A stretch of 64,000 bases of DNA from a virus. The position numbers were made by a program, and so were the translations under genes. Shown piece by piece: positions 1-44,341 of this stretch (position 1 is the first letter of the stretch; each line of letters opens with the position of its first letter). Under the pieces are notes generated by a model, which worked only from the letters and a program-made list of their open reading frames with translations, was not told where the DNA came from and ran no database searches. The stretch is taken from the IMG/VR virus record IMGVR_UViG_3300037475_000079, positions 1 through 64,000 of that record; one strand, written 5' to 3'.

Positions 1-2
1 GG

Positions 3-3560: not shown

Positions 3561-3582
3561 CCACCACTTTTCAGGAGCCACC

Positions 3583-4104: not shown

Positions 4105-4139
4105 GAATGGATTGTGGTTTTACTTCAGGAGACTTTGAA

Positions 4140-5916: not shown

Positions 5917-6113
5917 TGGCTGCCGGTGTCCGCGGTACTTCTGGAGGAGTAATAATGGGAATGAATGGACCGCCTCCGAGCGACAGACCGCGATATCCGA
6001 TCGCCACTCCGCCCATGCCACCAATCATCCGGCAGCCTATCAACTGCCGTGGCTGCGGCGCGAATCATGCAGCCAGCCAATGCCCCTATTGCGGAAGAGG
6101 ACGCGGAGGATGA
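5916..6113 (+). CDS. small Pro-rich protein with C-terminal CxxC..CxxC zinc-ribbon-like motif
   Basis: The internal ATG at 5916 overlaps the upstream TGA. Ends 'INCRGCGANHAASQCPYCGRGRGG', and its TGA overlaps the next ATG. Confidence 0.4.
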   Translation: MAAGVRGTSGGVIMGMNGPPPSDRPRYPIATPPMPPIIRQPINCRGCGANHAASQCPYCGRGRGG

Positions 6114-7425: not shown

Positions 7426-8492
7426 CGGCCTGCTGATTGGCCTGCCTTAGCAAGTCGAAATAGATCATCAGCCAGACCGTCAGATCCCGCTGCCCCCGTC
7501 GAATTGACAAATGCATCGGTCAAATCGGCTTCGTAGGTCTGCACTAATCCCGTAGCCGGCGTGACTGACAGAATCAGCGTGTCGCCACTCGCATTTGGTG
7601 CGGCTGGGTCAACTCCCGACGTCGCGTCCTGGATTGTGCGAACAGCGAACATTAGCACTCCGAGCGCACTTGGAACGCCAGTAATGTTTCCGCGTGGCGA
7701 GAACATCAGATCGACGTTGACCGGCGAGACCGGAGGCGGCACCGAGTAGCTGGCGAGTGTCTTAACCGCCTGATTTGAGTAGGCGATGTCGATGACGCAG
7801 CCAGATGGCATCGGTATCGGCTGGTGAAAAGCGAGTACTTCGTTGCCTACCAGAATGCCGATTGACGAATCGGTGTCCGTCGCCAGCTTGTTGACGAACG
7901 ATTTGGCCGGCGAGATTTGATTTCCGCCGTTGTCGAAGGCTGCGGCAAGCGTAAGAATTACATTCCCCGCATTGTCTTTCTGGCAATAGTACGGAGGCAC
8001 GTTAGAGACCTGCTGCAAAGGATACCACTGTCCAGTCAGTGCGGGAATCTGTGCCTTGACGAGTCCCGGTTGCCAGAGCGAAATAGATGATGAATCCTGC
8101 GCGAGCCATGCCGCCGATTCGGGACTGCCTACGACGATCTGAATTGAAGGATTCGGAAGCGGATTGATAACAGTCATGACGTTGCTCTCCTGTCCATTGG
8201 CGGAGTTTCCCGCAACCTGCATCGGCATCGGCTGCAAGTACACGAAACCGTTAATCAAGTTCGGATTCGTCGCGTCCCGTGTCAGCCGGACACCGCGATA
8301 GTCCTTAGCGTGCAGTGCTCGATCTTTGGCCCCCAGGAATGCGGACTGCCCGATTCGTACCGACGAACGGACACGCTCGCTCGACTTGCCACTATTGAAC
8401 ACGGCCATCGCCGCTCCTATTAGCAGCAGCATGATCGTGATGACCACGAGCAATTCGACAATGGTAAATCCAGATCGGCGGTTAGCTTTCAT
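7422..8492 (-). CDS. prepilin-type N-terminal cleavage/methylation domain protein (pseudopilin-like)
   Basis: N-terminus 'MKANRRSGFTIVELLVVITIMLLLIGAAMAVF' is the class III signal / pilin hydrophobic helix. Confidence 0.7.
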   Translation of the reverse strand: MKANRRSGFTIVELLVVITIMLLLIGAAMAVFNSGKSSERVRSSVRIGQSAFLGAKDRALHAKDYRGVRLTRDATNPNLINGFVYLQPMPMQVAGNSANGQESNVMTVINPLPNPSIQIVVGSPESAAWLAQDSSSISLWQPGLVKAQIPALTGQWYPLQQVSNVPPYYCQKDNAGNVILTLAAAFDNGGNQISPAKSFVNKLATDTDSSIGILVGNEVLAFHQPIPMPSGCVIDIAYSNQAVKTLASYSVPPPVSPVNVDLMFSPRGNITGVPSALGVLMFAVRTIQDATSGVDPAAPNASGDTLILSVTPATGLVQTYEADLTDAFVNSTGAAGSDGLADDLFRLAKAGQSAGR

Positions 8493-8682
8493 TCTTGCAT
8501 CCCCCTACATTGAGTCGGTACGTTTCCCAAGCCTGCATCGTGAACGCGATGCCGGCCATTCCCCAGAACATCAGATCGAGCTGTATCAACTGCCAGAGAC
8601 GCCCGTCAATCATCCTCTCGAATAGCGGCGTGCTGTCGAATGGCAAGTAGATCGAAAAAAGGTGATCCTGAATAGGAGGCAT
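8482..8682 (-). CDS. hypothetical small hydrophobic protein
   Basis: Start taken at MPPIQDH (AGGTG upstream). Overlaps the pilin-like start by 11 nt. Confidence 0.3.
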   Translation of the reverse strand: MPPIQDHLFSIYLPFDSTPLFERMIDGRLWQLIQLDLMFWGMAGIAFTMQAWETYRLNVGGCKNES

Positions 8683-8701
8683 TTGGCACCTGAAATGATT
8701 T

Positions 8702-8740
8702 GACCTCGCCAGCACCGGGTTCAGCGGTGCGGGCGAGGTC
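8702..8740 (-). other. nested stem-loop in an intergenic region
   Basis: GACCTCGCC..GGCGAGGTC (9 bp) encloses GCACCG-ggttcag-CGGTGC. No T-run follows. Confidence 0.3.
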
Positions 8741-21975: not shown

Positions 21976-23589
21976 TTACCCGATCTGCAACGAGGTCATG
22001 ACTGAGCAGTAACCGCCCAAAGTCAGCTTGCCGCCGAACCGGGCGCGAGCGAACAAGAGCTTTTCGTTCGCCAGTGTCAGCGTCTGGCCGGTCGTCAGGA
22101 GTTCGAAGTAGAGACCCAGGCGACGATAGAGACGGTATCCGCGAAGGTTGCAGGCGAAGACCGTACCGTCGGCGATGTCGTTCTGAACGGCGACGTGGTA
22201 GTCCCCGAGCTGGTAATCCTTCAAGTGCATGCCGTAGATCGGCCGCGTGTCGCCGGTGACACCCGTCGCCAACTGCATGAACTTTTTGTATTCCTTGTCC
22301 GACGTGATGAACATGGTGTTTTCACCACCGAACGCCTTACGGTAAGGCTTCGTGATGCCATACATCAGGTTCAGTCCGTCGTTGTAAACCATCGTGGCGT
22401 GTGACGCTCCAGTTGCCGTCACGGTGATCGTGGACGACGCATTCTTCAGACCCTGCGGCTGAGTCGTTCCGTCTCCGACGGCGATCCAGTTGTCCATCTG
22501 GTACTTGAACTGGTCGCCGAGCTGGGCCACGATCATTTGGCCGATATTGGGAGCGGCGTCCATTTCGAAGTCACGGCCCCACAGGAACCCGCAACTCGCC
22601 GGGAAAAACGTCACATCGTACGTCGTAACGAATGACGTGGCGTCGAATGCAGTGATGGCCGTACCAGAGGCGGTCGTCACGTACGTCGGGGTTCCGATCG
22701 AATAGCTGTGCGCCGAAGCACCGCGATCGGTCGGAGTGATTTCGACGAACGGAACCAGCTCCCCATAAAGCAGGGGAATACGGATGGCTTCGAAGTCGAA
22801 GTACTGAGGAACGGCCTGAGTACCGCCAGACGTGTTGTCGCCGAGCAGCGGAGCCTTAGACTGACTGGGCGCAAAAGCAGCACCGCCGCGAAGTCCGCCT
22901 TGCTTGGTGAACACATCGCGTTCGGCATCTTTCAGCCTACGAGGCATTCCAATCATGTCGCCTTTATTGGCTCCTGGGCCAACCCATTCGTCGTCGTGCA
23001 TTGCCGATTTGACGAGCATTTCGTCCTCTTCGGTGACGCGAATGTTCATCTTCTGGAGAATTGGATGCTCTGGACCGTTATCACGGACAAGCATCTTCTT
23101 GAAGATTGCCCCCATCTTGGCGTATTCAAACTGCGACGGATCCTGAATGTACTTCTTCTCCGCAGTCTGAATTTTCGGGTCAGTAATATGCTCCATGCCG
23201 GGTCTCGTTTCCCAGTAGAAAGCATCATTTCCGGGTGCGTACAGACCCTTGCGTGCGAATTCGCGCTCATTCGGCCACTTGGCAGTTGATTTTGTGCAAT
23301 CGAAGCGTTCCTTGACGTGCTTGACGCGGGGATCGCCGCCAAAGTCTCCAGCAGCCTTTTCGCCGGGATTCGTGGCACCAGCGAACACCTCTCGCGGATC
23401 GGGATTGCCCTTTCCGTTCGTGTCAGCCGGGGCGTTGGGCTGCGCCATCAGTTCGGTCAGGCGAGCCTTCGTGATCTTGCCGGCCTTGACTGAATTGATT
23501 GCCGTTGCCGCAACATCCTTGTCGGAAGCGCCGGCCGGCAAGCCGTGGTTCTGGACGAGTTCGTCCCTGAGACTCTTCGTAATCGTCAT
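21976..23589 (-). CDS. major capsid protein, HK97 fold, with ~240-aa N-terminal extension
   Basis: The C-terminal ~290 aa match the HK97-family pattern ('VGDGTTQPQGL', 'LFARARFGG'). Follows the prohead protease. Confidence 0.85.
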   Translation of the reverse strand: MTITKSLRDELVQNHGLPAGASDKDVAATAINSVKAGKITKARLTELMAQPNAPADTNGKGNPDPREVFAGATNPGEKAAGDFGGDPRVKHVKERFDCTKSTAKWPNEREFARKGLYAPGNDAFYWETRPGMEHITDPKIQTAEKKYIQDPSQFEYAKMGAIFKKMLVRDNGPEHPILQKMNIRVTEEDEMLVKSAMHDDEWVGPGANKGDMIGMPRRLKDAERDVFTKQGGLRGGAAFAPSQSKAPLLGDNTSGGTQAVPQYFDFEAIRIPLLYGELVPFVEITPTDRGASAHSYSIGTPTYVTTASGTAITAFDATSFVTTYDVTFFPASCGFLWGRDFEMDAAPNIGQMIVAQLGDQFKYQMDNWIAVGDGTTQPQGLKNASSTITVTATGASHATMVYNDGLNLMYGITKPYRKAFGGENTMFITSDKEYKKFMQLATGVTGDTRPIYGMHLKDYQLGDYHVAVQNDIADGTVFACNLRGYRLYRRLGLYFELLTTGQTLTLANEKLLFARARFGGKLTLGGYCSVMTSLQIG

Positions 23590-26248: not shown

Positions 26249-26666
26249 CTACTTCGCACTCATCTTTCTGGCAACCGACTTCGCCGTCATTTTAGAACGA
26301 TTCGATTTCTTATTTCGTTCCCGAATCCGAATGACTCTTGCCGCTTCAAACACCTGCGCGAGTTCCGACAGCACGGCGTATTTCTGTTGGAAGAATTCCA
26401 ATTCACGCAGGGCCATCGCTAACATCGCCGCACGATGACCGGAATTACGAACAACGTCTGTCGTTCTCCGATACCCTCCAGTTTCTGTACCGCGGTCCTG
26501 AGGAAGTGAAACATAGGCACGGATGTTCTGTTCAACTGCCGGCTCAAAGTAGACACAGACACGGATGATTTGCCGAGCCTGCCACAGACGGTATTCGACG
26601 GCCGCCTTCGAGTCATCCCAGACGAATTCTGCGTGAAGCGCCGTCTTTCGATTTCTAGCAAACTCT
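26249..26666 (-). pseudogene. 3' part of a phage gene split by the transposon
   Basis: Protein-like open frame with no start codon (..EFARNRKTALHAEFVWDDSKAAVEYRLWQARQIIRV...KMSAK*). Joins in frame to 31441-31534 once the element is removed. Confidence 0.7.
26659..26666. repeat. target-site duplication, left copy (CAAACTCT)
   Basis: An identical 8-mer abuts the outer end of both terminal inverted repeats. Confidence 0.75.
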
Positions 26667-26691
26667 GGTACTGGCTAGATAGTGCGGTGCT
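26667..26691 (+). repeat. left terminal inverted repeat
   Basis: GGTACTGGCTAGATAGTGCGGTGCT. Confidence 0.75.
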
Positions 26692-26726
26692 CGACAGAAT
26701 GTCTGGATTGGCGACGTAAGTGCGGA

Positions 26727-26981
26727 TCAGGATTTTGTCATGCCAAGTCCCCAGACCCATTCGAGATAATTATGTAGCCACGCTGGACCGCTCTCGTATG
26801 CCCAACGAGCCGGGGCGCAATAAGACCATGTAATCTTTCCGGCAACGCTATTATCGTTCAGGAGTATTCCGCGAACGTCCAGCCACGCAATTGGAAACAG
26901 GCTCAGCGGATACCCCACGAGCACCGCGACCAGCACCACGGTCACCCAAAACGCCACACCGGGTTTCTTGCGGTCAGTCAT
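26727..26981 (-). CDS. small membrane protein (transposon cargo)
   Basis: Starts MTDRKKPGVAFWVTVVLVAVLVGYPLSLF. Its ATG overlaps the upstream TGA. Confidence 0.45.
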   Translation of the reverse strand: MTDRKKPGVAFWVTVVLVAVLVGYPLSLFPIAWLDVRGILLNDNSVAGKITWSYCAPARWAYESGPAWLHNYLEWVWGLGMTKS

Positions 26982-27094
26982 GGTTTGCGCCGCATGAATA
27001 TGATGGTGGACACCAGAGCGATCAGGCACGCGACTACGACTGGAATCCAGACCGCCGGAACAATCTCGTAATACCGCGCAATGATCGGGCTCAT
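26978..27094 (-). CDS. 38-aa membrane peptide (below the ORF-track cut-off)
   Basis: MSPIIARYYEIVPAVWIPVVVACLIALVSTIIFMRRKP*, coupled to the next gene by an ATGA overlap. Confidence 0.35.
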   Translation of the reverse strand: MSPIIARYYEIVPAVWIPVVVACLIALVSTIIFMRRKP

Positions 27095-27131
27095 GCCCGC
27101 ATTCTACCCACGGTGGCGTGGGAGCGGGAAG

Positions 27132-27650
27132 CTAATTATTTCGTTTTGTAGCTTTTTGGAATTCCGGAAACAGGCCATCGCCCAATATTGGAATAGGGAC
27201 TGGTGGGAAGCCCATGCGCACGCTCATTGATTGAACGAATTCTCGCCAATAAGGCCAAACCATGCGAAGACCCGACACCTGTCCAAAAGCTAAGGCGTCA
27301 TCTTCTGGCGGTGCCGACGATTCTGGTTTTAGTTGGAATACAATACGAAACGTTGCCTCGATCAAAATTGGCTGTTCCAGTGTTTTGAAAAACGCAGTCA
27401 TATTGAGTTTAACGATGTAATTGAGCGCCTTTGATCCATCTACGCCCTCCCCAAAGGCTGATTTAATCTCGACGTCAAATTTTGCCTCTGCTGGACCTGA
27501 AAGAGGCGATACCGGATGTTTGTCTCGCGATGAACCGCAATTTTCCAAGCGGATAAAACTAACCGTGGTAACGTCCTTCGCGACTCTCACAGCTCTGGTC
27601 AATTCATCTTCACTCCGATCGGTCGGCGTTTTTTTAAGCTTTTTGGACAT
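27132..27650 (-). CDS. SecB-like chaperone (third component of a TAC module)
   Basis: 'GLRMVWPYWREFVQSMSVRMGFPPVPIPILG' parallels SecB '[32 protein letters not shown]', and the upstream beta-strand pattern is also SecB-like. Confidence 0.65.
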   Translation of the reverse strand: MSKKLKKTPTDRSEDELTRAVRVAKDVTTVSFIRLENCGSSRDKHPVSPLSGPAEAKFDVEIKSAFGEGVDGSKALNYIVKLNMTAFFKTLEQPILIEATFRIVFQLKPESSAPPEDDALAFGQVSGLRMVWPYWREFVQSMSVRMGFPPVPIPILGDGLFPEFQKATKRNN

Positions 27651-28047
27651 GGTGAAGCGGCCGTTCAGTTTTGGTTTCCGGGAATTTCAGAATCCATCCG
27701 TCCGAGTCATCTTCAAATTGATTCGCAGAGAATGGAAAGCTCATCTGAAGCTTAATTCCAGTGCCAGAACTTGCCGGCCTAATCGTCGGGACAAATTCAT
27801 GTCCGAGCACCAAAAACACATCGGCTATTGTCCGAATCGTCATGTTTGCGCTGCCGTCCAAAAGCTGAGTGATATAGCCCTTGGTTTTCCCCAGTCTTGC
27901 CGCAAGCTCAGAACGAGTCACGCCGGCCTCATCCATGACGTCACAGACGAGATCCGTTGTATCCAATATTGACCGCTCCTGGTTCCATAGTAGCGCTCCC
28001 TCTTTGGAAGACGTTAAACGATCCTTCAGACTGGTCCATTTCGTCAC
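27634..28047 (-). CDS. XRE-family HTH antitoxin (HigA-like) with ~45-aa C-terminal extension
   Basis: HTH 'GVTRSELAARLGKTKGYITQLLDG'. Overlaps both the toxin and the chaperone genes. Confidence 0.7.
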   Translation of the reverse strand: MTKWTSLKDRLTSSKEGALLWNQERSILDTTDLVCDVMDEAGVTRSELAARLGKTKGYITQLLDGSANMTIRTIADVFLVLGHEFVPTIRPASSGTGIKLQMSFPFSANQFEDDSDGWILKFPETKTERPLHHVQKA

Positions 28048-28451
28048 TTATTCTGTCCCCCCTTTTCGTTAACCCTCTCCCATTGAAAATGTTCGGCTGC
28101 AATATTCTGGGCGTGCGTGATTGCCCCTTGTGGGCATTTCCCACGACCGCCAGCTTTCTTGATTCGATGCGTCAGAAGGACTCTCGGGCCGATGCGATAA
28201 CACAGCAATCTGTGGTCGCCTCGCTTGAACTCCCAAATATCTCCGTCAAGTTGCCGAAATTGCTCTTTGTTTGGAATTCGTCCAGAATCAACAAGGCGAC
28301 GAAACAAAACGTCAAAACTGGCTAGAACATTGACAGGACTTTTGTCGAACCACGACTTCGCTTCCATCGTTCCATCGGCGCGAATGGCAAATTCAACAGT
28401 GCCATAGCGACCCTTTTCCAGCGTTCTATCGTCGCGAGATGGGGCAGCCAT
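28044..28451 (-). CDS. HigB/RelE-superfamily toxin (Gp49-like)
   Basis: 'LDGDIWEFKRGDHRLLCYRIGPRVLLTHRIKKAG..P..AITHAQNIAAEH' fits the Gp49/HigB pattern. The toxin-first gene order is typical of HigBA. Confidence 0.7.
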   Translation of the reverse strand: MAAPSRDDRTLEKGRYGTVEFAIRADGTMEAKSWFDKSPVNVLASFDVLFRRLVDSGRIPNKEQFRQLDGDIWEFKRGDHRLLCYRIGPRVLLTHRIKKAGGRGKCPQGAITHAQNIAAEHFQWERVNEKGGQNK

Positions 28452-28610
28452 GAAGTTTATCTTAAACTAAACCACTGGTCAACGAAAAATCGAGATATAT
28501 TTGCGATCTCAATTCAATCATCTCAGCGAACCCGATGCGCATTGTGGTGTCAAGCGGATATGCACATTTCTTTATTCATCAATGACCGTCCGTTCACCCC
28601 GATGTAGTTC

Positions 28611-28705
28611 GGAGAACGGCCCGCGCCCTGGCGGCGCAGCAGACTTATACCCTGAAGGAGGGGACCGGCAGGCTGCCGGCTTGGGTTCGATTCCCCCGCT
28701 CTCCG
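28611..28705 (+). other. tRNA-like remnant (not a functional tRNA)
   Basis: GGGTTCGATTCCC T-loop-like box, a 6-bp CCGGCA/TGCCGG variable-arm-like hairpin, and a 6/7 acceptor pairing (GGAGAAC/GCTCTCC). The D and anticodon arms do not fold. Confidence 0.25.
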
Positions 28706-28711
28706 CTCGCT

Positions 28712-28894
28712 CTATCGAGTGTCACGCTTGGCGGCTCTGTTAAGCCGGTCACGAATCCAAGCGGCAAGAGACATTCCAGATTCGTCGGCGGCTGACCGCC
28801 ATGCGGTCTTGTCGGCGCTCGTCAGCCGCAACTGGAACACTTCTTCCGCGCGTTCGTCGGCTGGCTTCGGTGGTCGTCCACGCTTGGCTTTCAT
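28712..28894 (-). CDS. ribbon-helix-helix DNA-binding protein (paralogue 1 of 3)
   Basis: Basic N-terminus, then 'FQLRLTSADKTAWRSAADESGMSLAAWIRDRLNRAA' (strand-helix-helix pattern). Confidence 0.55.
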   Translation of the reverse strand: MKAKRGRPPKPADERAEEVFQLRLTSADKTAWRSAADESGMSLAAWIRDRLNRAAKRDTR

Positions 28895-28900
28895 GGCTGG

Positions 28901-28971
28901 ATTGTAATTACAAGAAATCTTTTGTCAACCGCTGATTTTCTGTTGACACCTGACTAAATGTAATTACAATA
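28901..28971. promoter_or_regulatory. mirror-image divergent promoters with TGTAATTACA palindromic operators
   Basis: Minus: TTGACA (28923-28928), 16 nt, TACAAT (28901-28906). Plus: TTGACA (28943-28948), 16 nt, TACAAT (28965-28970). Each -10 is embedded in TGTAATTACA. Confidence 0.5.
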
Positions 28972-29107
28972 AAGCCAGTGAAAGAGAAAACCCCGATCAG
29001 TGTTATCAGCACCGACCGGGGCGAGAACACAACCCGGCGAATCGCCGAATCGCGTCCCTGACAAGAACGATTCTAAACGATTCGCCCCCACAAAGGGAGA
29101 GCGAATC

Positions 29108-30061
29108 ATGGCATGTCCGAAATGCGGATCAGAGAACGTAAAGGCCAACGGAAAGCATCGGAACGGGAGTCAGCGGTTCAAGTGTCGTGACTGCAAGAAA
29201 ACATTCACGGAAAATCGCCTCAAGCCGCTTGGCGACATGCGGCTGCCGGTCGAAAAGGCATTGAACATTCTCCGGCTGCTGCTCGACGGCATGTCGATTC
29301 GCGCGTGTGAACGGTTCACGGGCGTCTGCCACAAGACGATTTGTGACATGATTCTTGAGGTCGGTGATCGATGCGGACAGTTCCTTTCAGACCGCCTGCA
29401 AGGCGTGCCGGTTTCCGACGTGCAGTGTGATGAAATTTGGTCGTTCGTCGGCATGAAGGAGCGGACGAAAACGAACACGCACAATAGCGACCCGCTCATG
29501 GGCGACAGCTATTGCTACGTCGGACTGGAACGCGATACGAAACTGATCGTCTCGTACCTGCTCGGAAAGCGCGACGAATTCGACACGCATGAATTCGCGT
29601 CCGGTTTGCGGCGCGCGACGGCGGGACGGTTCCAGCTTTCGACAGATGGGTGGCAGCCGTACTACACCTACATGCCGCTCGAATTCGGGCAGCGGATTGA
29701 CTTCAGCACGATAATCAAGACGTTCGCCAATGCACCGCGCGGGAGCGGGAGGTACTCGCCGGGTGAGATAGTGACGATCAACAAGCGCCCGGTTGTCGGT
29801 GATCCCGACTTGTCTCGCGTTTGCACTTCGCACGTCGAGCGATCGAACTTGACAATTCGCATGTCTATTCGCCGCTGGACCCGGCTCACGAATGCATTCT
29901 CGAAATCGTGGAAGCACCACAACGCCATGATGGCAATTTTCGTCGCGTTCTATGATTTCTGCCGGACCCACATGACGCTCAAGACGACTCCCGCTGTCGC
30001 GGCTCGCTTGACGGATCATCCGTGGACACTTGAGGAATTGCTGACGGCAGCCGCGATATAG
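29108..30061 (+). CDS. IS1-family transposase (single ORF with N-terminal zinc finger)
   Basis: 'MACPKCGSENVKANGKHRNGSQRFKCRDCKKTF', DDE candidates 'VQCDEIWSF', 'LSTDGWQPY', 'SHVERSNLTIRMSIRRWTRLTNAFSK', and 'FYDFCRTHMTL'. Confidence 0.8.
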   Translation: MACPKCGSENVKANGKHRNGSQRFKCRDCKKTFTENRLKPLGDMRLPVEKALNILRLLLDGMSIRACERFTGVCHKTICDMILEVGDRCGQFLSDRLQGVPVSDVQCDEIWSFVGMKERTKTNTHNSDPLMGDSYCYVGLERDTKLIVSYLLGKRDEFDTHEFASGLRRATAGRFQLSTDGWQPYYTYMPLEFGQRIDFSTIIKTFANAPRGSGRYSPGEIVTINKRPVVGDPDLSRVCTSHVERSNLTIRMSIRRWTRLTNAFSKSWKHHNAMMAIFVAFYDFCRTHMTLKTTPAVAARLTDHPWTLEELLTAAAI

Positions 30062-30075
30062 GACCGGAAACGACC

Positions 30076-30114
30076 AACCCCGCCGGAGTGATTCGGCGGG
30101 GTTCTTGTATTTTC
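30076..30114 (+). terminator. rho-independent terminator after the transposase gene
   Basis: AACCCCGCCG-gagtgatt-CGGCGGGGTT followed by a T-rich tail. Confidence 0.6.
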
Positions 30115-30127
30115 GAGACTTTGTATA

Positions 30128-30172
30128 TTATGCAAGATCCCCCTTGACAATCGTTGCATATCTTGCATAATT
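30128..30172 (+). promoter_or_regulatory. promoter with TTGCATA operator repeats for the second TA pair
   Basis: TTGACA (30144-30149), 17 nt, ATAATT (30167-30172). Inverted repeat TTATGCAAGAT/ATCTTGCATAA. Three copies of the heptamer TTGCATA/TATGCAA. Confidence 0.5.
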
Positions 30173-30225
30173 GAATGCGGCTGGGGCGGCACGAGTGCCG
30201 AAACATTTTCAGGGGAGTCTTGACC

Positions 30226-30681
30226 ATGCCGGACGATGCTAAATCGCAAATCGAGAAACCGCAGCAATCTCTTACTGTAGTTGCGCTCGACTGGGCCAAG
30301 GACGAAGGAAGGCGGATTCTGACGAATGAGCAATACTGGCACGTCGTCAGATACATCAAGCGGCTAGTCGAATTTGGCGACAAATCGGCAATGTCAGACC
30401 TCTCGATAAGCCAACTGGGGAGTGGATTTTGGGCACTTAAACTGAAGGGGCGGATCTTGAAAAAGATCAACCTCCGAATTTATTTCGCCCATGTTCCTGA
30501 AAGGAATGAAATTGTTGTGTTGATGGCCTACAAAAAAGAAGAAGATCGTCGCGTATGTCCAGCAGTTAAGTACCTTTTGGAGGACAGGCTTGAAGATTAC
30601 TTGGCGGGCCGCACAGAGCGGGCGAGCTATTTTTCTGGGGAAACGGGCGAACCACGGGGCTCTGAATCGGAGGGCGAATAA
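30226..30681 (+). CDS. RelE/HigB-like toxin (Gp49-like), second TA pair
   Basis: 'FWALKLKGRILKKINLRIYFAHVPERNEIVVLMAYKKEED'. GGGGAG lies 8 nt upstream of the ATG. Confidence 0.55.
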   Translation: MPDDAKSQIEKPQQSLTVVALDWAKDEGRRILTNEQYWHVVRYIKRLVEFGDKSAMSDLSISQLGSGFWALKLKGRILKKINLRIYFAHVPERNEIVVLMAYKKEEDRRVCPAVKYLLEDRLEDYLAGRTERASYFSGETGEPRGSESEGE

Positions 30682-31166
30682 TGAGTGTCACAATCGAAAA
30701 AAATAATGCGGCGGTTGAGAAAGAGCGCGTCCAGGATCTGTTGCTTGCATATACAAAACTGCCGAAGAAAAAAAAGGATCGCGTCGAAAAGCTGGTGGAA
30801 TTGCTCAGAACGGCCGACCCTGGCAGTGAAGAGCAGCGGGAGATCGCCGGTGCGATCGCCGAAATCCTCATTCCGCATATAATCGGAAGGAGTCAATCGC
30901 GACCAGTGGATTTGGAGGAAGGGATTTCATCTGCTGGACGCCAAAGCGTTGATGCGTATCACAAAAGCGTTGGCGAAGCGATCCGCAATGCGAGGGACGA
31001 AGCAGGCATGACGCAAGAGATGTTGGCGAAAAATAGTGGCTTGCCGCAGAGCCACATCAGTAGGCTGGAAGCTGGAATCCACGCCCCGACGAACAAGACG
31101 ATTGAGAAAATTGCGGAAGCTCTAAATATTGATCCATCAAAACTCGACCTGCTTTATGATTCATGA
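30681..31166 (+). CDS. XRE-family HTH antitoxin, second TA pair
   Basis: C-terminal HTH 'GMTQEMLAKNSGLPQSHISRLEAG..PTNKTIEKIAEAL'. The ATG overlaps the toxin stop. Confidence 0.65.
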   Translation: MSVTIEKNNAAVEKERVQDLLLAYTKLPKKKKDRVEKLVELLRTADPGSEEQREIAGAIAEILIPHIIGRSQSRPVDLEEGISSAGRQSVDAYHKSVGEAIRNARDEAGMTQEMLAKNSGLPQSHISRLEAGIHAPTNKTIEKIAEALNIDPSKLDLLYDS

Positions 31167-31193
31167 TTGTCAGGGCGTGATGTTTCTTACAAA

Positions 31194-31225
31194 AGCCAGC
31201 CGTCCGATGACGGTTGGCTTTTTCG
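31194..31225 (+). terminator. rho-independent terminator after the second TA pair
   Basis: 11-bp stem AGCCAGCCGTC/GACGGTTGGCT (one G-U pair), loop CGAT, then a T-run. Confidence 0.55.
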
Positions 31226-31269
31226 CTTTCCACTCGCCCTCCCGTCGCCATCCAGGGTATGATTGCGGC

Positions 31270-31404
31270 ATGAACATTTGGCCTGAACTTCTGGTGTGGG
31301 GCGTCCTGCTGGCGGTGGCCGGCTATCAGCTATTCGATCTCGCGCGAGACTTGGACGCACGCGATAAAAAGTCGCGGTCGCAATCGCCCGATTCCGCTCC
31401 CTGA
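31270..31404 (+). CDS. possible 44-aa membrane peptide
   Basis: MNIWPELLVWGVLLAVAGYQLFDLARDL.. ends 11 nt before the right terminal repeat. No clear RBS. Confidence 0.25.
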   Translation: MNIWPELLVWGVLLAVAGYQLFDLARDLDARDKKSRSQSPDSAP

Positions 31405-31415
31405 CCGGACGAGCC

Positions 31416-31440
31416 AGCACCGCATTGTCTAGCCAGTACC
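31416..31440 (-). repeat. right terminal inverted repeat
   Basis: The reverse complement is GGTACTGGCTAGACAATGCGGTGCT, 23/25 identical to the left repeat. Confidence 0.75.
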
Positions 31441-31448
31441 CAAACTCT
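31441..31448. repeat. target-site duplication, right copy (CAAACTCT)
   Basis: Identical to 26659-26666. Confidence 0.75.
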
Positions 31449-31534
31449 ACAACATCAGCCGGGTTGACCGCGCCGTCTTCGGAGCGGCTGCGAATCAGTT
31501 CGATTTCTTCACGAATCTTGTCGCTTGACTTCAT
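31441..31534 (-). pseudogene. 5' part of the phage gene split by the transposon
   Basis: GGAGG RBS, then MKSSDKIREEIELIRSRSEDGAVNPADVVEF. After 31441 the frame runs into the terminal repeat and turns Arg/Pro-rich. Confidence 0.7.
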
Positions 31535-34407: not shown

Positions 34408-36759
34408 TTACTCCGATAATAGACTGCAACGGCAGTTGATCCTCTGGGAAGCCGACAAATCGGGATCTCCCGGATATTTTGCCTTTTCCCCGCCGACAGT
34501 GAAGTTCCCTTCCGCGTCCGACTTCTGGCCGTTCGCATTCCAGTGCGATTGTCTGGCGTGCTCATCCATCGTGGTCAGCCATTCAGAACCAGTGGCAATC
34601 CCCTCTTCGATCATGTCCTGAATCTCGGAGAACTGGCCGGCGTTCAATGCCATCGTGCTCTCTGATCTGGCAATCATCAGCGATCTCGCGCCAGCAGAAC
34701 GGCCACCCAACGCCTGATCGACTCGGAACACACGTTCCCGCAGTGTGTCGCCTTCCTCGAAGGAAATACGCAGGCAGTTGCTCAGGTCATCGAGCATCGT
34801 ATCGTTGATGCCGGACCAGTACGGTTTCTTCAGTGCCTCATCGAGCGTGCGCTTCATGGCAGCCACGACGCCGGCCGGAAGTCGCATCGTCGGATCGGCG
34901 TCATCCTTCCTGAATGACTTCAGTTTGTGCCGAGCTAATTCGGCACCGGCAACCCCACATCGCAGCAAGTGTGGATAGGCCATCTTGCGTAACGGCGCAT
35001 CCCAGTCTCGTGGATTGAACACCGCGGCAGCATCGAAGGCGTCGGCCTGCTGGTCCATCTTGGCGACGATTGACGCCACCTGTGCCTTGATGAACTTATG
35101 CACGTCTCTGGCGAACGGCTTCTCGTTGTTCGAATGCAGTTTAAGCCATGACGTCTCGAAGTCCTTCGTCGTGTCTGACGTAATCAGCAGTTGCTTCGCG
35201 GTATCAGATTCGGAATTCGATTGTTGCTGCGTGGTTGGATCTGGCGGCAGGTATTCTTCCCGAACTTCCAAGGCAGTGGCAGCTTCGTCGTCGATCGGTT
35301 CGAGGATCTGCATGGCCGTCGTGATTCGGACTTTCCCCATCCCATTCGGCATCGGAGGAAATCCGAGAGACGAGCGCAGTTCATCGACAACCAGGCCGGC
35401 ATTACCGCACAGCAGTTCCAGGTCTTTGCGGAGACCGTCCTTGTCGGAAGAAACGGCTTCCTCGATCCACATGACCGTATGGCCGGTCTTTTTCTTATCG
35501 AACAATGGCAGGAGCCGGTCGTTCATGATCGTCGAGAGGAAATTGATCTCGGGATTGGCGATGTTCGAAGTGAACACCTCATCTGCCACGAGTGCCGTGG
35601 CGCGATTGGCGTCCGTGATGTCCCCGCCGACGACCGCAGGCGTGCCGTAGTTCCGCCAGATGGCCTGGCGGTTGTAGGTTCCCGATTCGGTGAAGTCCAT
35701 TTCGTTGGCGGTGTTCGAAATCTTCTTGATGTCCGAAATTGCTCGATCGAGGATGATTGCCCGACCGTGCTTCGAAGCCCCTTGGAACAGGTGCTGAAGC
35801 CGTGTCATCATTTGCGTGATCTGGAATCTGTCGAGCTGGGCCTTGCCAAGATTCTTGCCGTTCGGGTCGATGATGTCCCCGGTGATGACCGCTAACCAAG
35901 GCAGAATCGAGTTCTCGAAGAACTGTCGCTGACTCAAACGGATTGACTCATCAACCTGCACGGCCAGTACGCCGGCTCGCGTCGGCGAATGCGGCACGAA
36001 GATATTCGCCGGGTCGGGATGGCAGAAGAAGATCACCCGATCGGCCGGAAGATCGACGCCTTCCATCTGGTTGAACGGAGGCGCGAGCACATACCCCGCG
36101 TCCAGCATGGCATTTCTCGGCTTCTCGCGGATCCAGTGCGAGGGGAGATACCACAAGTCGTACGGGCGATCTCCGGTGTGAGAGTCGGTCAGCCACCAGA
36201 AGCAGCGGCCGGTCATATCCAGGCTGGCGACGGTGCTTTCCAGGAGCGTGTGCTGCGTCAACCGGGGAATCGGCTGCGACAGCAAGTCCAAGACCGGATG
36301 GTTCTCCAGGATCTCGACTCGGGCCGCTTCTGAATGAAAGCTCTTGTGCAGCTTGATCCGGGTTCCGAGGTTCTCATGAAACGGCAGTCCGATTCGAGAG
36401 CAAATCCACTTCGGGAGAACGGCAGTCTCTTCCGGTTGAAGCTCCCGGCGCCCCGGAGTCTTGAACGGGTTCGAGAATCCCTTACGCTTGCCTGATTCTT
36501 CCCGAGCGGACACAACTTCCGCCACATGAATCGGCTGGCCGGCGATGCGCTGCCTTTTGGGGCGCATGGCGGCGTAGGCTTCTCCCGTGTTGTGGGAGTA
36601 GGAGTTTTGCGACTGAAACTGTTCGGGATCGGCCTGTTGAGGATACTGGCTTTCGTTCAGCGAATTGAAGATGCGTCCGGCATCGTTCGATCCGCGACGC
36701 CGCTTCAGTTCACGATCCTTGTCCGCCCACGAGCGGATTTCGGCAAGAGCAGACGACAT
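34408..36759 (-). CDS. portal protein fused to a MuF/SPP1 gp7-like head morphogenesis domain
   Basis: 783 aa, downstream of terL. The C-terminus 'TTMDEHARQSHWNANGQ....YPGDPDLSASQRINCRCSLL' matches the MuF signature. GAGGA RBS. Confidence 0.7.
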   Translation of the reverse strand: MSSALAEIRSWADKDRELKRRRGSNDAGRIFNSLNESQYPQQADPEQFQSQNSYSHNTGEAYAAMRPKRQRIAGQPIHVAEVVSAREESGKRKGFSNPFKTPGRRELQPEETAVLPKWICSRIGLPFHENLGTRIKLHKSFHSEAARVEILENHPVLDLLSQPIPRLTQHTLLESTVASLDMTGRCFWWLTDSHTGDRPYDLWYLPSHWIREKPRNAMLDAGYVLAPPFNQMEGVDLPADRVIFFCHPDPANIFVPHSPTRAGVLAVQVDESIRLSQRQFFENSILPWLAVITGDIIDPNGKNLGKAQLDRFQITQMMTRLQHLFQGASKHGRAIILDRAISDIKKISNTANEMDFTESGTYNRQAIWRNYGTPAVVGGDITDANRATALVADEVFTSNIANPEINFLSTIMNDRLLPLFDKKKTGHTVMWIEEAVSSDKDGLRKDLELLCGNAGLVVDELRSSLGFPPMPNGMGKVRITTAMQILEPIDDEAATALEVREEYLPPDPTTQQQSNSESDTAKQLLITSDTTKDFETSWLKLHSNNEKPFARDVHKFIKAQVASIVAKMDQQADAFDAAAVFNPRDWDAPLRKMAYPHLLRCGVAGAELARHKLKSFRKDDADPTMRLPAGVVAAMKRTLDEALKKPYWSGINDTMLDDLSNCLRISFEEGDTLRERVFRVDQALGGRSAGARSLMIARSESTMALNAGQFSEIQDMIEEGIATGSEWLTTMDEHARQSHWNANGQKSDAEGNFTVGGEKAKYPGDPDLSASQRINCRCSLLSE

Positions 36760-36906: not shown

Positions 36907-37425
36907 CTATTCCCCCATCATCCTCTGCTGCCAGTTCACCGCTGGATCTTTTGCACCGACGATGCGCTCGTTGTAAACCGCGATCTCCGCCTTCTCGCGC
37001 GTCAGGTTCTTCTCGTGCAGGGCCGCGAGCAGCTTGTTCTCATCTTCCAGGACGTCGATGCGATTCTTCAGACGTGGAATGTCTGTATCTTCGAGCCGAC
37101 TTACCTCCCGAGCCTTGGTAGCCAGACGTCCTTCGAGTTCCTTGATCTGATTATCCTTGGCGGTCAGTTTCAACGCAATGTCAGCAACCTGCTTGGCGGC
37201 GTCACGCTTAGACTTGACGGCCTCTAACCGGGCGTCACGGATGGCTTGTGATTCCTGGCGACGGCGGATGAGCTTGCGGAGAGCGGTCCAGGTGCGAAGG
37301 AAGATGCCGGGTGTAACATCGACGACGCGGACATTGACGGCACACTCACCAATTAGTGGACGGCGAGTCTCGTGGCCGTTTGTTGAGGGCGGTTCAAGTT
37401 CAGGCCATTCGTGCCTTTTCACCAT
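36907..37425 (-). CDS. coiled-coil protein
   Basis: Start taken at MVKRHEW. Long heptad-like region 'AKQVADIALKLTAKDNQIKELEGRLATKAREVSRLED'. Confidence 0.45.
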   Translation of the reverse strand: MVKRHEWPELEPPSTNGHETRRPLIGECAVNVRVVDVTPGIFLRTWTALRKLIRRRQESQAIRDARLEAVKSKRDAAKQVADIALKLTAKDNQIKELEGRLATKAREVSRLEDTDIPRLKNRIDVLEDENKLLAALHEKNLTREKAEIAVYNERIVGAKDPAVNWQQRMMGE

Positions 37426-39182
37426 TCCATTTTCCCATTCTCTTCCAACGCCATCGACATGACAGCGGTATCCAGATTGACGGCTTTCTCGACGGGGATC
37501 CTCTTGCGGCCAGAGCACTTCGGACACATCCGATTCTTCCCGTCGCATTCGTCACACGGGATTGTACGCATCTTCGGATCGTCCTGAAAAGGCTGATCTG
37601 GTTCGGAGAAGCCTTCGTCGTCCTCATTTCGCGGCTTTTCAGGCACGCCGTGTTCGATGTCGTACAGTCGCTTTTCCATGCTGTCCAGGGTATACATCAA
37701 CTCACGATCGGTGAACGGATTGACGGGAACGATCGAGGCTAATTCGACGGCAGCCGGGAGCGCAATAGCGAACGCAAACGCCCTGTCAGCATGGCCCGAC
37801 TGATCCTCCGACGCCTCGATCTTGAACCCGAAGGCACGCTCCACGATGTTCAACTTCGTCAGGTCGCTGATGAGTTCTTCGTCCCGGTAAAGCTCGATGT
37901 ACCGCCCCTTAAAGGCTTCGATGATGGTCGTGGCCATCACAGACAGCCCCTTGCCGCTGAACGACATTTCCTCGCAGTAGATTCCCACGCTCTGAAGCTG
38001 CTGCGCCATGAGCACGGCCTGTGCCTGGTCATACATCAGCTTTGTCAGCCGAAAAGCCCTGTGTTGCCGCTCGATGTCCACCTGGATCGCCTGAAGGTCC
38101 ACCTTCCCGGTGTATTCATCCGGCTTCCAACTGCGGGCATAAGCCAGCTTGACGCGATGCTCGTCAGGCTGTACTGCCAGCATCACAAACGCCGACCGAT
38201 GCCGCTTCGTAGACAAGTCCAGCCCGCCGATGTAAACCCACCCCGGCTCCGGTGCGAAGATCGGCCGGACATTCCGCTCGATACCCATCACAACGCAGGC
38301 TTCGATATCGGACAACTCCAGAGCATCGCCTGTTTCAACCTGCCAGATATTGAGCCAGAGACGGGCAAAGGCCTTCTTCGTGAGCCCTTTACCCTGCCGC
38401 TTCAGGAAGTCAGTTCCCATCCACGAGGCACACGGACCATTCAGATTTCGGTAGATCCAGTCATGACTATCCGCGATCGCCATATCCCTGACCTGCGCCT
38501 GCCACGTCCTCTCGTAGCCGGCGTTTGTCATGATGACGAGAATGCAATGCGGCACCTTGTCAGCCGACGAAAATAACGAGTCCCAAAGCTCGCATTTTCC
38601 GTCTTCCGAACGCCAATGCGTCAACTCGTCGCACAGAATGAAATCGGGAGTGGCGCCGAACGACGAGGGAGCATCCGACGAAATGATGTCTACTTCTGAC
38701 TTCGTTTTCGGATTGAACACCCGATAATTCTGGACGTTGATGATGTTAAGGCCAGTCTTGCCCAGCCACGGATTGAGCAGAATGATCCTCAACACGGCGT
38801 CCCGGATGAACTTCGCCTGATCTTTCGCCCCGGCAGCGGCAATTCCATTCAAAGGCTTCGTGGAAAAAGCAATCACCCACACCAACTGCATCGCCTCATC
38901 CATCGTCTTCGAATGTCCACGCGCACGACCCAGCCACGCAAACTTTCGCAACTCCGGGTTCTCCATCGGCACGCCAGCCACACGCATCCACATCGGATCC
39001 AATGCCGCTAAATTCTCTTCCTGCCAGGGATCTGGACTGAATAGCCCCACCCCATTCCCCTTGCGGATGAACAGCGAAGCCCGAAATGCAGCCGGAGACC
39101 TCTTAAACCGACGAATGTCATCCGGCGTAATCGCCGCCAAAACCTTGCGTGACGGAACAGTCGGTCGTCCAGCCTTTGCCAC
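37419..39182 (-). CDS. terL: terminase large subunit
   Basis: Walker A-like 'GRARGHSKT', Walker B 'FILCDELTHW', nuclease 'GGLDLSTKRH' and 'GHADRAFAFAIA'. C-terminal CxxC..CxxC tail. Confidence 0.85.
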   Translation of the reverse strand: MAKAGRPTVPSRKVLAAITPDDIRRFKRSPAAFRASLFIRKGNGVGLFSPDPWQEENLAALDPMWMRVAGVPMENPELRKFAWLGRARGHSKTMDEAMQLVWVIAFSTKPLNGIAAAGAKDQAKFIRDAVLRIILLNPWLGKTGLNIINVQNYRVFNPKTKSEVDIISSDAPSSFGATPDFILCDELTHWRSEDGKCELWDSLFSSADKVPHCILVIMTNAGYERTWQAQVRDMAIADSHDWIYRNLNGPCASWMGTDFLKRQGKGLTKKAFARLWLNIWQVETGDALELSDIEACVVMGIERNVRPIFAPEPGWVYIGGLDLSTKRHRSAFVMLAVQPDEHRVKLAYARSWKPDEYTGKVDLQAIQVDIERQHRAFRLTKLMYDQAQAVLMAQQLQSVGIYCEEMSFSGKGLSVMATTIIEAFKGRYIELYRDEELISDLTKLNIVERAFGFKIEASEDQSGHADRAFAFAIALPAAVELASIVPVNPFTDRELMYTLDSMEKRLYDIEHGVPEKPRNEDDEGFSEPDQPFQDDPKMRTIPCDECDGKNRMCPKCSGRKRIPVEKAVNLDTAVMSMALEENGKMEW

Positions 39183-43168: not shown

Positions 43169-43430
43169 AAAAACCTACGGCAACGGCACACGACACGAGG
43201 TCATCAATCGCGCCATCCGCGCCGAGCTAACTGGCGGCAATGAGTGCCTCGAAACGATTCGGGCGCTGAATGAACGCATCGCCAATCTGCGTAACGCTGG
43301 CGAATCAACCGCTTATGCCGAGCAGAGATTGCGGAGTTGGGAGCAAGAGCGAGATAAGATGGCAACACACATCGAGGCCAAGCATCAGGTCGGGGCGAAT
43401 ATGAATCGCAGGGGGAGCGTCGCATCGTGA
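43158..43430 (+). CDS. hypothetical protein (position suggests an excisionase or regulator)
   Basis: Start at MSIRKTYG. 90 aa. Its stop overlaps the integrase GTG. Confidence 0.35.
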   Translation: MSIRKTYGNGTRHEVINRAIRAELTGGNECLETIRALNERIANLRNAGESTAYAEQRLRSWEQERDKMATHIEAKHQVGANMNRRGSVAS

Positions 43431-44341
43431 CCGCTGCCGCCACATGGCCAGAATTCAAAGCAGCCTACCGCGCCGACGTCATGCCCGGCATGGCTCCGTC
43501 AACGGTAGCTAAAGTCGCCAGCCTGTTCCGCAAGTTTGAGAAGTCGGCACGCCCGATTCGACTTGCTGACATATCCAGCCACACGATCTCGACATTCATT
43601 GCCTACCGGCGCCGCAAGGGGATCCGCGACACCACTATCCGCGGAGACCTCGGGCACCTGCAATCGGCATTCTCCTGGATGAAACGACATGGCCTGATTG
43701 CTGAAATACCCCAGATTGACAAACCTAAGCGCGCTAAGGGTCAGAAAGCCATGAAGGGCCGTCCCATCACACAGGAAGAGTTCGATTCAATCCTGGCACA
43801 AACGACCGATCCGGCTTGGGCGTGGCTCCTGCGTGGCCTGTGGGCTTCAGGATTGAGGCTTAGCGAGGCTCTGGCCCTGACGTGGGAACCTGGCTTGTCG
43901 ATGTCGCTCGATTTCACCCGCAAGAGGCCCATGCTGCGGGTTCCCGCCTCATCCGAGAAGGGGAATCAGGAACGCCTCTTACCTATATCTCCAGAGTTCT
44001 CGGAATTGCTGTCGGAAGTGCCGGAAGATAAGCGATCGGGGCGCGTATTTCGAGTACGGTTTCGCAGCCAAGAAACGATTTCGACTGTCATCAGTGGATT
44101 CGGCAAAGCCGCCGGTGTCGAGGTCAACAGGGAACCTGGACGAATCAAATATGCCAGTGCTCACGACTTCCGCCGCTCATTCGGAGAACGCTGGTCTGCC
44201 AAGTTAATGCCGGCAATCCTGATGCAACTCATGCGGCACGAGAAGATCGAGACGACACTTCGATACTATGTGGGACGCAATGCCGATACGGCGGCCGAAG
44301 CGATCTGGAGCGCCCATGAATCTTCGATCTGGAGCGACTAA
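43427..44341 (+). CDS. int: tyrosine recombinase / phage integrase
   Basis: 'GLRLSEALAL' (Arg I), 'AHDFRRSF' (His-x-x-Arg) and 'LMRHEKIETTLRYY' (His..Tyr). Confidence 0.85.
   Translation: MTAAATWPEFKAAYRADVMPGMAPSTVAKVASLFRKFEKSARPIRLADISSHTISTFIAYRRRKGIRDTTIRGDLGHLQSAFSWMKRHGLIAEIPQIDKPKRAKGQKAMKGRPITQEEFDSILAQTTDPAWAWLLRGLWASGLRLSEALALTWEPGLSMSLDFTRKRPMLRVPASSEKGNQERLLPISPEFSELLSEVPEDKRSGRVFRVRFRSQETISTVISGFGKAAGVEVNREPGRIKYASAHDFRRSFGERWSAKLMPAILMQLMRHEKIETTLRYYVGRNADTAAEAIWSAHESSIWSD

Follow-up and report, generated by a model that had tools for sequence, protein, structure and literature searches.

The 64,000-nucleotide (nt) stretch of viral DNA studied here (positions 1 to 64,000 of the IMG/VR record IMGVR_UViG_3300037475_000079; referred to in the following as the window) in all likelihood harbors a toxin-antitoxin-chaperone (TAC) operon of the HigBAC type that resides on a transposon within the genome of a phage. 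TAC systems have been known since 2011. Versions built around the toxin-antitoxin (TA) pairs HigBA, MqsRA, and HicAB have been described (PMC5105189). An earlier note on this DNA had read three overlapping minus-strand genes as such a module, had likened their architecture to that of the TAC system of Mycobacterium tuberculosis (Rv1955-Rv1956-Rv1957), and had placed them in the cargo of a transposon carried by a phage. We document here the architecture of the operon, the folds and conserved residues of its products, the synteny of its relatives, and the insertion event, and the results support the earlier reading of the locus.

The toxin-antitoxin-chaperone operon and its relatives

The three open reading frames (ORFs) are located precisely in the segment named in the earlier note (27132-28451) and follow each other on the minus strand in the order toxin, antitoxin, and SecB-like chaperone (Table 1), so that the locus is tricistronic. 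The stop codon of the toxin gene and the GTG start codon of the antitoxin gene overlap by 4 nt (GTGA), and the antitoxin gene in turn overlaps the chaperone gene by 17 nt; overlaps of this kind are typical of translationally coupled operons. The −10 hexamer of the candidate promoter in front of the toxin gene is overlapped by an inverted repeat (AGTTTA/TAAACT).

The earlier note had proposed profile searches with three Pfam families as a check, and these gave a divided answer. All three families were matched, but each single protein of the window remained below the curated cut-off: Gp49 (PF05973; RelE/ParE superfamily) gave 22.6 bits with the toxin (gathering threshold, 23.9), HTH_3 gave 19.4 bits with the antitoxin (cut-off, 23), and SecB (PF02556) gave 17.8 bits with the chaperone (cut-off, 26). 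Since such single-sequence scores are suggestive but not sufficient, we built family-level profiles, and the evidence that these provided is strong.

A word-indexed homologue search retrieved six relatives of the chaperone, all of which contain the invariant core VWPYWREFVQ...RM..P. The motif VWPYWREFVQ...RMGFPP, which had led the earlier note to call the protein SecB-like, is this family core, and it aligns with FPYARE...R..FP of SecB. When compared with the PDB, the single chaperone sequence already found Rv1957 as its best match (E = 0.002), and a family profile built from the chaperone and its homologues matched Rv1957 (5MTW) over almost its full length with an E-value of 1.1e-10, as against 0.14 for SecB from Haemophilus influenzae (1FX3). 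An AlphaFold2 model of the chaperone [mean predicted local distance difference test (pLDDT), 78.9; predicted template-modeling (TM) score, 0.72] consists of four long beta strands and two helices, a short one and one of 30 residues. The earlier note had made its reading of this protein depend on the SecB fold, and the model has this fold: the top four Foldseek matches were chains of 5MTW (E = 1.9e-9 to 1.5e-8; target TM score, 0.75-0.77), followed by SecB from Escherichia coli and H. influenzae. Furthermore, the conserved segment F148-P149-P150-V151 that follows the long helix aligns with L154-P155-P156-L157 of Rv1957, which forms the pocket for residue Y114 of the chaperone-addiction (ChAD) region of the cognate antitoxin (PMC6377645). 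The scores for the SecB equivalog model TIGR00809 (18.3 bits; cut-off, 102.8) and for NF004392 (18.8; cut-off, 143) are, like that for PF02556, below the cut-offs, and the protein therefore does not count as a member of SecB itself. It has the SecB fold but is not an export SecB, and both the profile comparison with the PDB and Foldseek place it with the third proteins of the SecB^TA type.

The small number of relatives found at first had suggested that the chaperone family is rare. This was ruled out by an exhaustive hidden Markov model (HMM) search, which recovered 5,241 cluster representatives at E ≤ 1e-3, of which 2,744 remained at E ≤ 1e-10; the initial scarcity hence reflected a limit of the word index. 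PHROGs holds the family as an unannotated entry (phrog_16879; E = 1.9e-12), and of the three TAC proteins, the chaperone alone gave a PADLOC match, a weak one to PD-T4-9_C (E = 1.7e-3).

Five relatives of the toxin were found by the word-indexed search, three of them with precomputed Gp49 domains. Compared with the PDB, the single toxin sequence yielded only noise and a profile was needed; this family profile took in syntenic toxins in addition to the relatives. It matched HigB from Streptococcus pneumoniae (6AF3) with an E-value of 4.1e-7 and HigB1 from M. tuberculosis (7NBU, 7AWK) with an E-value of about 0.05, and seven of the nine aligned family members match Pfam Gp49 (best E = 2.2e-13). 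Because most of the family matches Gp49 and the profile matches 6AF3, we treat the toxin of the window as a divergent member of this family, in agreement with the Gp49/HigB-like toxin of the earlier note. In an hmmalign alignment, its residues R66, E74, K76, R81, K98/K99, and K105 are found at the positions of K58, E66, R68, R77, K95, and K99 of HigB1, and substitution of these HigB1 residues lowers or abolishes toxicity (PMC9098466). From the retention of these residues and the homology to HigB, the toxin is predicted to be an active ribosome-dependent RNase, that is, an mRNA interferase with a RelE fold.

For the antitoxin, a helix-turn-helix (HTH) protein of the XRE type, we found 98 homologues, the named ones of which come from Planctomycetaceae, Planctomycetia, Phycisphaerae, Thermoguttaceae, and Sedimentisphaerales. 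Given these names, Planctomycetota is the likely host phylum, and the carrier phage probably infects members of it. Gene callers differ about the start of the antitoxin gene, one version comprising 137 amino acids (aa) from the GTG at the toxin stop codon and the other 100 aa from an internal ATG. The homologues align from residue 1 or 2 onward and thus support the GTG start and the 137-aa form; the 100-aa version is too short and was ruled out by this alignment. An AlphaFold2 model of the antitoxin, based on 53 sequences, is confident for residues 1-90 (pLDDT of 88-98 by block), with core helices at residues 7-11, 15-41, 45-52, 56-63, and 71-80. Residues 91-137 have no secondary structure in the model (pLDDT of 49-72 by block) and are predicted to be disordered. 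These 47 residues, which correspond to the C-terminal tail of about 45 aa described in the earlier note, include five aromatic ones (F104, F106, F111, W118, and F122). At the level of prediction, the tail is therefore the disordered, aromatic C-terminal extension that marks a ChAD region, whose recognition by the chaperone is driven by aromatic residues in known systems (bioRxiv 10.1101/2024.02.24.581848; PMC5105189; PMC6377645).

A long tail beyond the HTH domain is present in every full-length antitoxin homologue that we inspected. Within the family, these tails are variable, with two semi-conserved aromatic positions that are mostly occupied by Trp, and most of them end in LAS, LAG, MVA, or LAA in an ssrA-like fashion. 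The LAS, MVA, and LAA endings resemble the Val-Ala degron through which ClpXP acts on HigA1 of M. tuberculosis; HigBAC of E. coli is independent of ClpXP (bioRxiv 10.1101/2024.02.24.581848). A C-terminal aliphatic degron on the antitoxin is a property of part of the TAC systems and is absent from others. The single antitoxin sequence had only generic XRE matches in the PDB, and its profile found weak matches to XRE and HigA proteins (E ≥ 0.011). Because these matches are weak, HigA is a name given here by partner and architecture, not by demonstrated orthology.

The order toxin, antitoxin, chaperone was present in all eight non-viral relatives examined (L003, L005, L009, L010, L190-L192, and, partially, L006), and in each chaperone relative with DNA upstream, a Gp49-like gene is followed by an HTH gene and then by the chaperone gene. 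Three of these loci (L190-L192) are antitoxin relatives on long chromosomal contigs, with full triplets recognized by HMM and with PutA, an aminoacyl-tRNA synthetase, and aconitase among their neighbors. Among the IMG/VR contigs encoding the chaperone motif (n = 21), the same antitoxin family is present directly upstream in 12, and a HigB-like toxin is detectable upstream of the antitoxin in five of these 12. Judged from these loci, the three-gene unit is a conserved and widespread module that is already common in viral contigs.

This synteny also bears on the reading that the window merely contains an ordinary two-gene HigBA pair next to an independent SecB-like gene, the product of which would serve in export, as a holdase, or as a phage or assembly chaperone without controlling the antitoxin. 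The SecB fold is generic, and SecB is the sole Pfam family touched by the chaperone, both of which favor such a view. However, about nine orders of magnitude separate the match of the chaperone profile to the TA-dedicated Rv1957 from its weaker match to export SecB, the score for TIGR00809 is 18 bits where 102.8 are required, the antitoxin and chaperone genes share 17 nt, the three-gene order persists in unrelated genomic contexts, and the long tail recurs among the inspected antitoxins. We therefore consider a chaperone without a role in antitoxin control to be quite improbable.

Insertion of an IS1-family transposon into a phage gene

The TAC operon lies within a transposon of 4,774 bp that is bounded by imperfect terminal inverted repeats (IRs) of 25 bp, 23 positions of which are identical, and by an exact 8-bp target-site duplication (TSD) that would be expected by chance with a probability of about 1.5e-5 (Table 1). 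A pattern derived from the IRs (≤3 mismatches) occurs in the window only at these two places, where 0 occurrences would be expected by chance. In-silico removal of the element together with one TSD copy restores a phage ORF of 167 aa, the product of which aligns with phrog_15946 through the junction (E = 2.8e-18). The corresponding empty site exists in a related phage contig from IMG/VR (L011), which encodes an intact 166-aa homologue that is 73% identical, aligns without gaps, and has contiguous flanks. The location of the operon in transposon cargo within a phage, as claimed in the earlier note, is thus established from both ends of the element and from an uninterrupted relative.

The transposase has a zinc ribbon and a DDE domain and exceeds the cut-offs of the relevant models, with 106.4 bits for NCBIfam NF033558 (transpos_IS1; cut-off, 100), 34.8 for Pfam DDE_Tnp_IS1 (24.1), and 31.2 for Zn_ribbon_InsA (26.1). 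A DDE transposase, terminal IRs with a TSD, and an empty site together identify the element as a member of the IS1 family. The ends of IS1 elements follow the consensus GGnnnTG, and the ends of the window element (GGTACTG) fit it. We take the element to resemble the ISMhu11-like, passenger-carrying subgroup of IS1 in ISfinder. It has in common with such passenger-carrying elements a transposase that matches the IS1 model, terminal IRs, and an 8-bp TSD. It differs from classic IS1 by its far greater length (4.77 kb), by the single ORF for its 317-aa transposase, and by its cargo of a TAC operon and a TA pair.

The transposase has numerous relatives that are 35-48% identical to it: GTDB genomes contain more than 581 of them, and viral contigs contain 77. 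A relative with 47% identity, which is among the two closest, belongs to an element of the same design with other cargo, a 3,966-bp IS1-family transposon in a metagenome-assembled genome of Acidimicrobiia (L111, positions 4759-8724). This element has perfect 24-bp IRs (GGTAGTGTCTGAAATGTGCGTTGA, beginning with GGTAGTG) and an exact 8-bp duplication (CAAGGCCC), and in its cargo of about 3 kb, a 99-aa ORF and a gene for an AbiEi-like protein accompany that for a 616-aa fusion of an N6/N4 DNA methylase with an Mrr-like endonuclease. Judged from these two elements, the transposon clade carries passengers, and in both cases they are of the defense type, which points to the shuttling of defense genes by a clade of small DDE transposons.

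The state of the insertion matters for the possibility that the TAC operon is an inactive relic without a current function, the passive passenger of a transposon copy that destroyed a phage gene on insertion. In keeping with this, the disrupted phage gene is a conserved one, the window proteins are divergent and score below the family cut-offs, and neither the exact element nor the exact sequence of its IRs was found elsewhere in the viral and metagenome collections searched. On the other hand, the transposase is intact, as are all cargo ORFs, and comparison with homologues shows them to be of full length, the catalytic residues of the toxin are retained, the overlaps typical of translational coupling are preserved, and the near-identity of the IRs together with the perfect TSD suggests that the insertion is recent. 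Taken together, these data make a relic very improbable.

Hardly any credence can be given to the idea that the TAC operon is not cargo at all but part of a pre-existing accessory (moron) region of the phage beside a small insertion sequence, with outer repeats that are coincidental: the region between portal and protease does contain other accessory genes and IS1 elements typically measure about 0.8-1.2 kb, but the sole IR pair of the window brackets the entire 4.77 kb, the duplication is exact, precise excision yields an ORF that aligns gap-free with an intact homologue whose flanks are contiguous, and between ends equivalent to these, the Acidimicrobiia element likewise harbors cargo of about 3 kb.

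Table 1. Positions of the features discussed in the text (window numbering).
Feature	Position	Strand	Basis or remarks
Toxin gene, 135 aa	28044-28451	minus	ORF
Antitoxin gene, 137 aa, GTG start	27634-28047	minus	ORF
Antitoxin tail, residues 91-137, putative ChAD region	27637-27777	minus	Disorder in AlphaFold2 model
SecB-like TA chaperone gene, 172 aa	27132-27650	minus	ORF
Candidate promoter of the TAC operon, TTGACC-17-TAAACT	28454-28482	minus	Consensus scan, 9/12 matches; weak evidence
IS1-family transposon with TAC operon and other cargo, 4,774 bp	26667-31440		IR pair, TSD, empty site
Left terminal IR, GGTACTGGCTAGATAGTGCGGTGCT	26667-26691	plus	
Right terminal IR, GGTACTGGCTAGACAATGCGGTGCT	31416-31440	minus	Read inward
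TSD CAAACTCT, left copy	26659-26666	plus	
TSD CAAACTCT, right copy	31441-31448	plus	
Interrupted phage gene, 5' part	31449-31534	minus	Excision, phrog_15946, L011
Interrupted phage gene, 3' part	26249-26666	minus	Excision, phrog_15946, L011
IS1-family transposase, 317 aa from ATG, zinc ribbon and DDE	29108-30061	plus	Gene call
Terminator-like hairpin after transposase	30076-30103		
Ribbon-helix-helix-like protein, 60 aa, cargo or regulator	28712-28894	minus	Divergent from transposase
Divergent promoter, toward ribbon-helix-helix gene	28901-28928	minus	
Divergent promoter, toward transposase	28943-28970	plus	
Promoter-like site before second TA pair	30144-30171		
Second toxin-like gene, 151 aa, weakly Gp49-like	30226-30681	plus	Gp49, E = 0.09; phrog_5869, E = 4e-5
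Second antitoxin-like gene, 161 aa	30681-31166	plus	HTH_3, E = 1.1e-17, 64 bits
100-aa ORF with one hydrophobic segment, downstream of chaperone	26727-27029	minus	ORF and gene call
Major capsid protein	21976-23589		
S78 prohead protease, 753 aa	23634-25895	minus	
Portal protein	34408-36759		
TerL	37419-39182		
Tyrosine integrase	43427-44341		

Proposed function and comparison with known systems

Several observations weigh against the reading of the locus as a HigBAC-type TAC operon that is at work on a mobile element. Taken singly, each of the three TAC proteins stays below the curated Pfam and NCBIfam cut-offs (Gp49, HTH_3, SecB), and the match of the candidate promoter to the consensus (9/12 in the scan) is weak. 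The antitoxin tail has no sequence similarity to the ChAD region of M. tuberculosis, and it ends in Gln-Lys-Ala (QKA), that is, in Lys-Ala where a degron would have Val-Ala or Ala-Ala. Within 6 kb of the transposase gene, neither a SecB-like nor a HigB-like gene was present in any of 157 loci with related IS1-family transposases (77 viral and 80 genomic). The TAC operon on this transposon is hence a single observed case, and carriage of a TAC does not characterize this transposase clade in general. The left transposon junction recurs with 100% identity in a 4.3-kb contig of a JGI dataset, but this dataset may come from the same sample. Finally, the insertion disrupts a phage gene, so that this transposon copy may be a dead end.

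By analogy with characterized relatives, from which RNase activity, dependence on the chaperone, trigger, and biological role of the module are inferred, the operon could work as follows. The HigB toxin would be a ribosome-dependent endonuclease that cuts mRNA, and the XRE-HTH antitoxin would bind and neutralize it and probably repress the operon as well. The disordered, aromatic-rich tail would make the antitoxin prone to aggregation or degradation unless it is held by the SecB-like chaperone, presumably a tetramer, which would thereby keep the antitoxin functional. Titration of the chaperone, or an arrest of its synthesis, would then free the toxin and halt translation. The carrier phage is probably temperate, since a tyrosine integrase is encoded among its genes, and as a passenger of the transposon in an accessory gene of such a phage, the module would be inherited by lysogens. 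There, it would most likely serve in abortive infection or superinfection defense, in addiction to the element, or in both. The anti-phage role that the earlier note had suggested agrees with what has been reported for prophage-borne TAC systems (bioRxiv 10.1101/2024.02.24.581848).

The system from M. tuberculosis (HigB1-HigA1-SecB^TA, encoded by Rv1955-Rv1956-Rv1957; 5MTW, 7NBU/7AWK) shares its one-operon gene order with the window, as the earlier note had maintained, and its chaperone Rv1957 is the best match of the window chaperone in both profile (E = 1.1e-10) and structure (E = 1.9e-9; TM score, 0.76), ahead of export SecB. The toxins of both systems belong to one Gp49-like HigB class and have catalytic residues that correspond to each other, and HigA1 likewise combines the HTH fold of an antitoxin with a C-terminal extension that is disordered, measures about 45 aa, and contains aromatic residues. 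Nevertheless, the two chaperones are only about 18-20% identical, the ChAD residues W108, R110, and Y114 of M. tuberculosis have no recognizable counterpart in the window tail, and the antitoxins end in Val-Ala and Lys-Ala, respectively. HigB1 moreover contains a short insert with N73 that is absent from the window toxin. The M. tuberculosis operon is chromosomal and stress-responsive, whereas that of the window is transposon cargo in a phage, and the host phyla probably differ, the phage host being likely a member of the Planctomycetota.

In their genomic setting, the TAC systems HigBAC of E. coli NT1F31 and CmdTAC/PD-T4-9 resemble the window operon, as they likewise occur in accessory regions of phages or prophages, and prophage-encoded HigBAC and CmdTAC protect E. 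coli from phages (bioRxiv 10.1101/2024.02.24.581848; PMC9519451; PMC11618068). The NT1F31 system also combines a HigB-type toxin with a SecB-like chaperone. In the E. coli prophage systems, the ChAD region is recognized through aromatic residues, of which the window tail has five; however, the ChAD region of E. coli HigA spans 96 aa with four regularly spaced aromatic residues, in contrast to the 47 aa of the window tail. The CmdT toxin is an ADP-ribosyltransferase while that of the window is HigB-like, and the window operon hence does not qualify as a CmdTAC system. The E. coli systems sit in hypervariable regions of prophages and have not been described inside an insertion sequence; their defense phenotype and a trigger (gpV of phage lambda) are known.

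Passenger pairs of Gp49 and HTH genes are also found in transposons of the Tn3 family, where they are likewise arranged toxin-first beside the transposition genes and have been proposed to stabilize or assist the transposon (PMC7157771). These elements possess a resolvase, in contrast to the DDE transposase of the IS1 type encountered here, and the window element differs from them by the presence of a chaperone gene and of a second TA pair. A short extra ORF next to one TA pair in the Tn3 survey is apparently unrelated to TAC systems (PMC7157771).

In the literature, we found no report of a TAC system that is carried as cargo by an IS1-family element or that occurs in a phage of this lineage. 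Since TAC systems, including anti-phage ones borne on prophages, have already been described, the window operon adds one more example to known biology, in an unusual vehicle; it neither represents a new mechanism nor overturns the current understanding. With TAC systems, a class of anti-phage defense has recently come into view in which sensing is a second task of the chaperone. The window operon adds to the HigBAC type a member from a phage with relatives that suggest Planctomycetota, a phylum in which phage-host biology has hardly been characterized. It also brings to light the size of the chaperone family, with its thousands of cluster representatives and its motif in 21 viral contigs. The window moreover offers a clean case of a whole TAC operon that entered a phage genome as the passenger of a small DDE transposon, and hence a concrete route by which defense modules can be exchanged between chromosomes and phages.

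A further interpretation is put forward tentatively, as one that is possible but that we would not expect to be the correct one: the IS1-family element may be a portable cassette for defense and addiction that uses a temperate phage as its vehicle. If so, the chaperone in a lysogen would act as a sensor that is titrated by structural proteins of competing phages, upon which HigB would be released and the infection aborted. The virion proteins of the carrier phage itself would have to evade this sensor, and both TA modules of the element would penalize its loss. Together with the Acidimicrobiia element, there would then be a clade of IS1-like transposons that shuttles defense genes between hosts and phages.

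Further cargo of the transposon and phage context

The remaining genes of the transposon lie on both sides of the transposase gene. The 60-aa ribbon-helix-helix-like protein has weak matches to NikA-like proteins, MobC, RelB, and an Arc-like repressor. Between its gene and that of the transposase, a 36-nt imperfect inverted repeat (within 28894-28977) holds two predicted divergent promoters, each of which corresponds to TTGACA-16-TACAAT with 11 of 12 consensus positions, and the palindrome TGTAATTACA covers the −10 hexamer of each of them. This segment looks like an operator, and the ribbon-helix-helix-like protein could thus control expression of the transposase.

The second TA pair is arranged toxin-first, like the Tn3-family pairs, and has no chaperone gene. 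Its antitoxin combines a C-terminal HTH_3 domain with an N-terminal extension of 95 aa, and the start of the antitoxin gene overlaps the stop codon of the toxin gene. A comparison of the second toxin with the PDB gave no informative match. The two toxins of the transposon were compared with each other and have no detectable similarity, so that a duplication of the first pair was rejected as the origin of the second. The 100-aa ORF matched no family in scans of the Pfam, NCBIfam, PHROGs, and PADLOC libraries; it could be a further cargo gene, for instance one for a small membrane protein involved in exclusion.

A tRNA-like stretch with a perfect T-arm (GGGTTCGATTCCC) is present on the plus strand between the ribbon-helix-helix gene and the TAC operon (28611-28704). 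ARAGORN found no tRNA in it, the Rfam model tRNA-Sec reached 21.9 bits against a cut-off of 47, and its predicted fold is no better than that of shuffled sequences. We therefore rejected it as a tRNA; it is a remnant at most, and may be the scar of a place where cargo was picked up.

The DNA around the transposon is that of a phage, as its genes for terminase (TerL), portal, protease, capsid, and integrase show (Table 1). The transposon has inserted into a stretch of small accessory genes between those for the portal protein and the prohead protease. The S78 domain of the protease is confined to residues ~129-223, and the long remainder, which is of low complexity with an abundance of Pro, Ser, Asn, and Thr, may represent a fused scaffold or decoration domain. 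At the left end of the window (1-8500), the encoded proteins include an HNH endonuclease, an aminotransferase of the DegT type, and a protein of 356 aa that has an N-terminal methylation motif of the pseudopilin type; either the phage possesses sugar-modification genes or the window reaches into host DNA.

Arrays with a 5-nt period flank the interrupted phage gene (26050-26240 and 31570-31830), with about 35 and 50 units, respectively, of (NNTCC)n on the plus strand, which corresponds to (GGANN)n on the transcribed minus strand. Most spacings between TCC triplets measure 5, 10, or 15 nt, whereas some deviate by one or are longer, and the period of the arrays excludes a coding function. A similar stretch is present upstream of the intact homologue in the contig with the empty site (at about 5541-5705), and the arrays may serve as binding sites for a protein on RNA or DNA.

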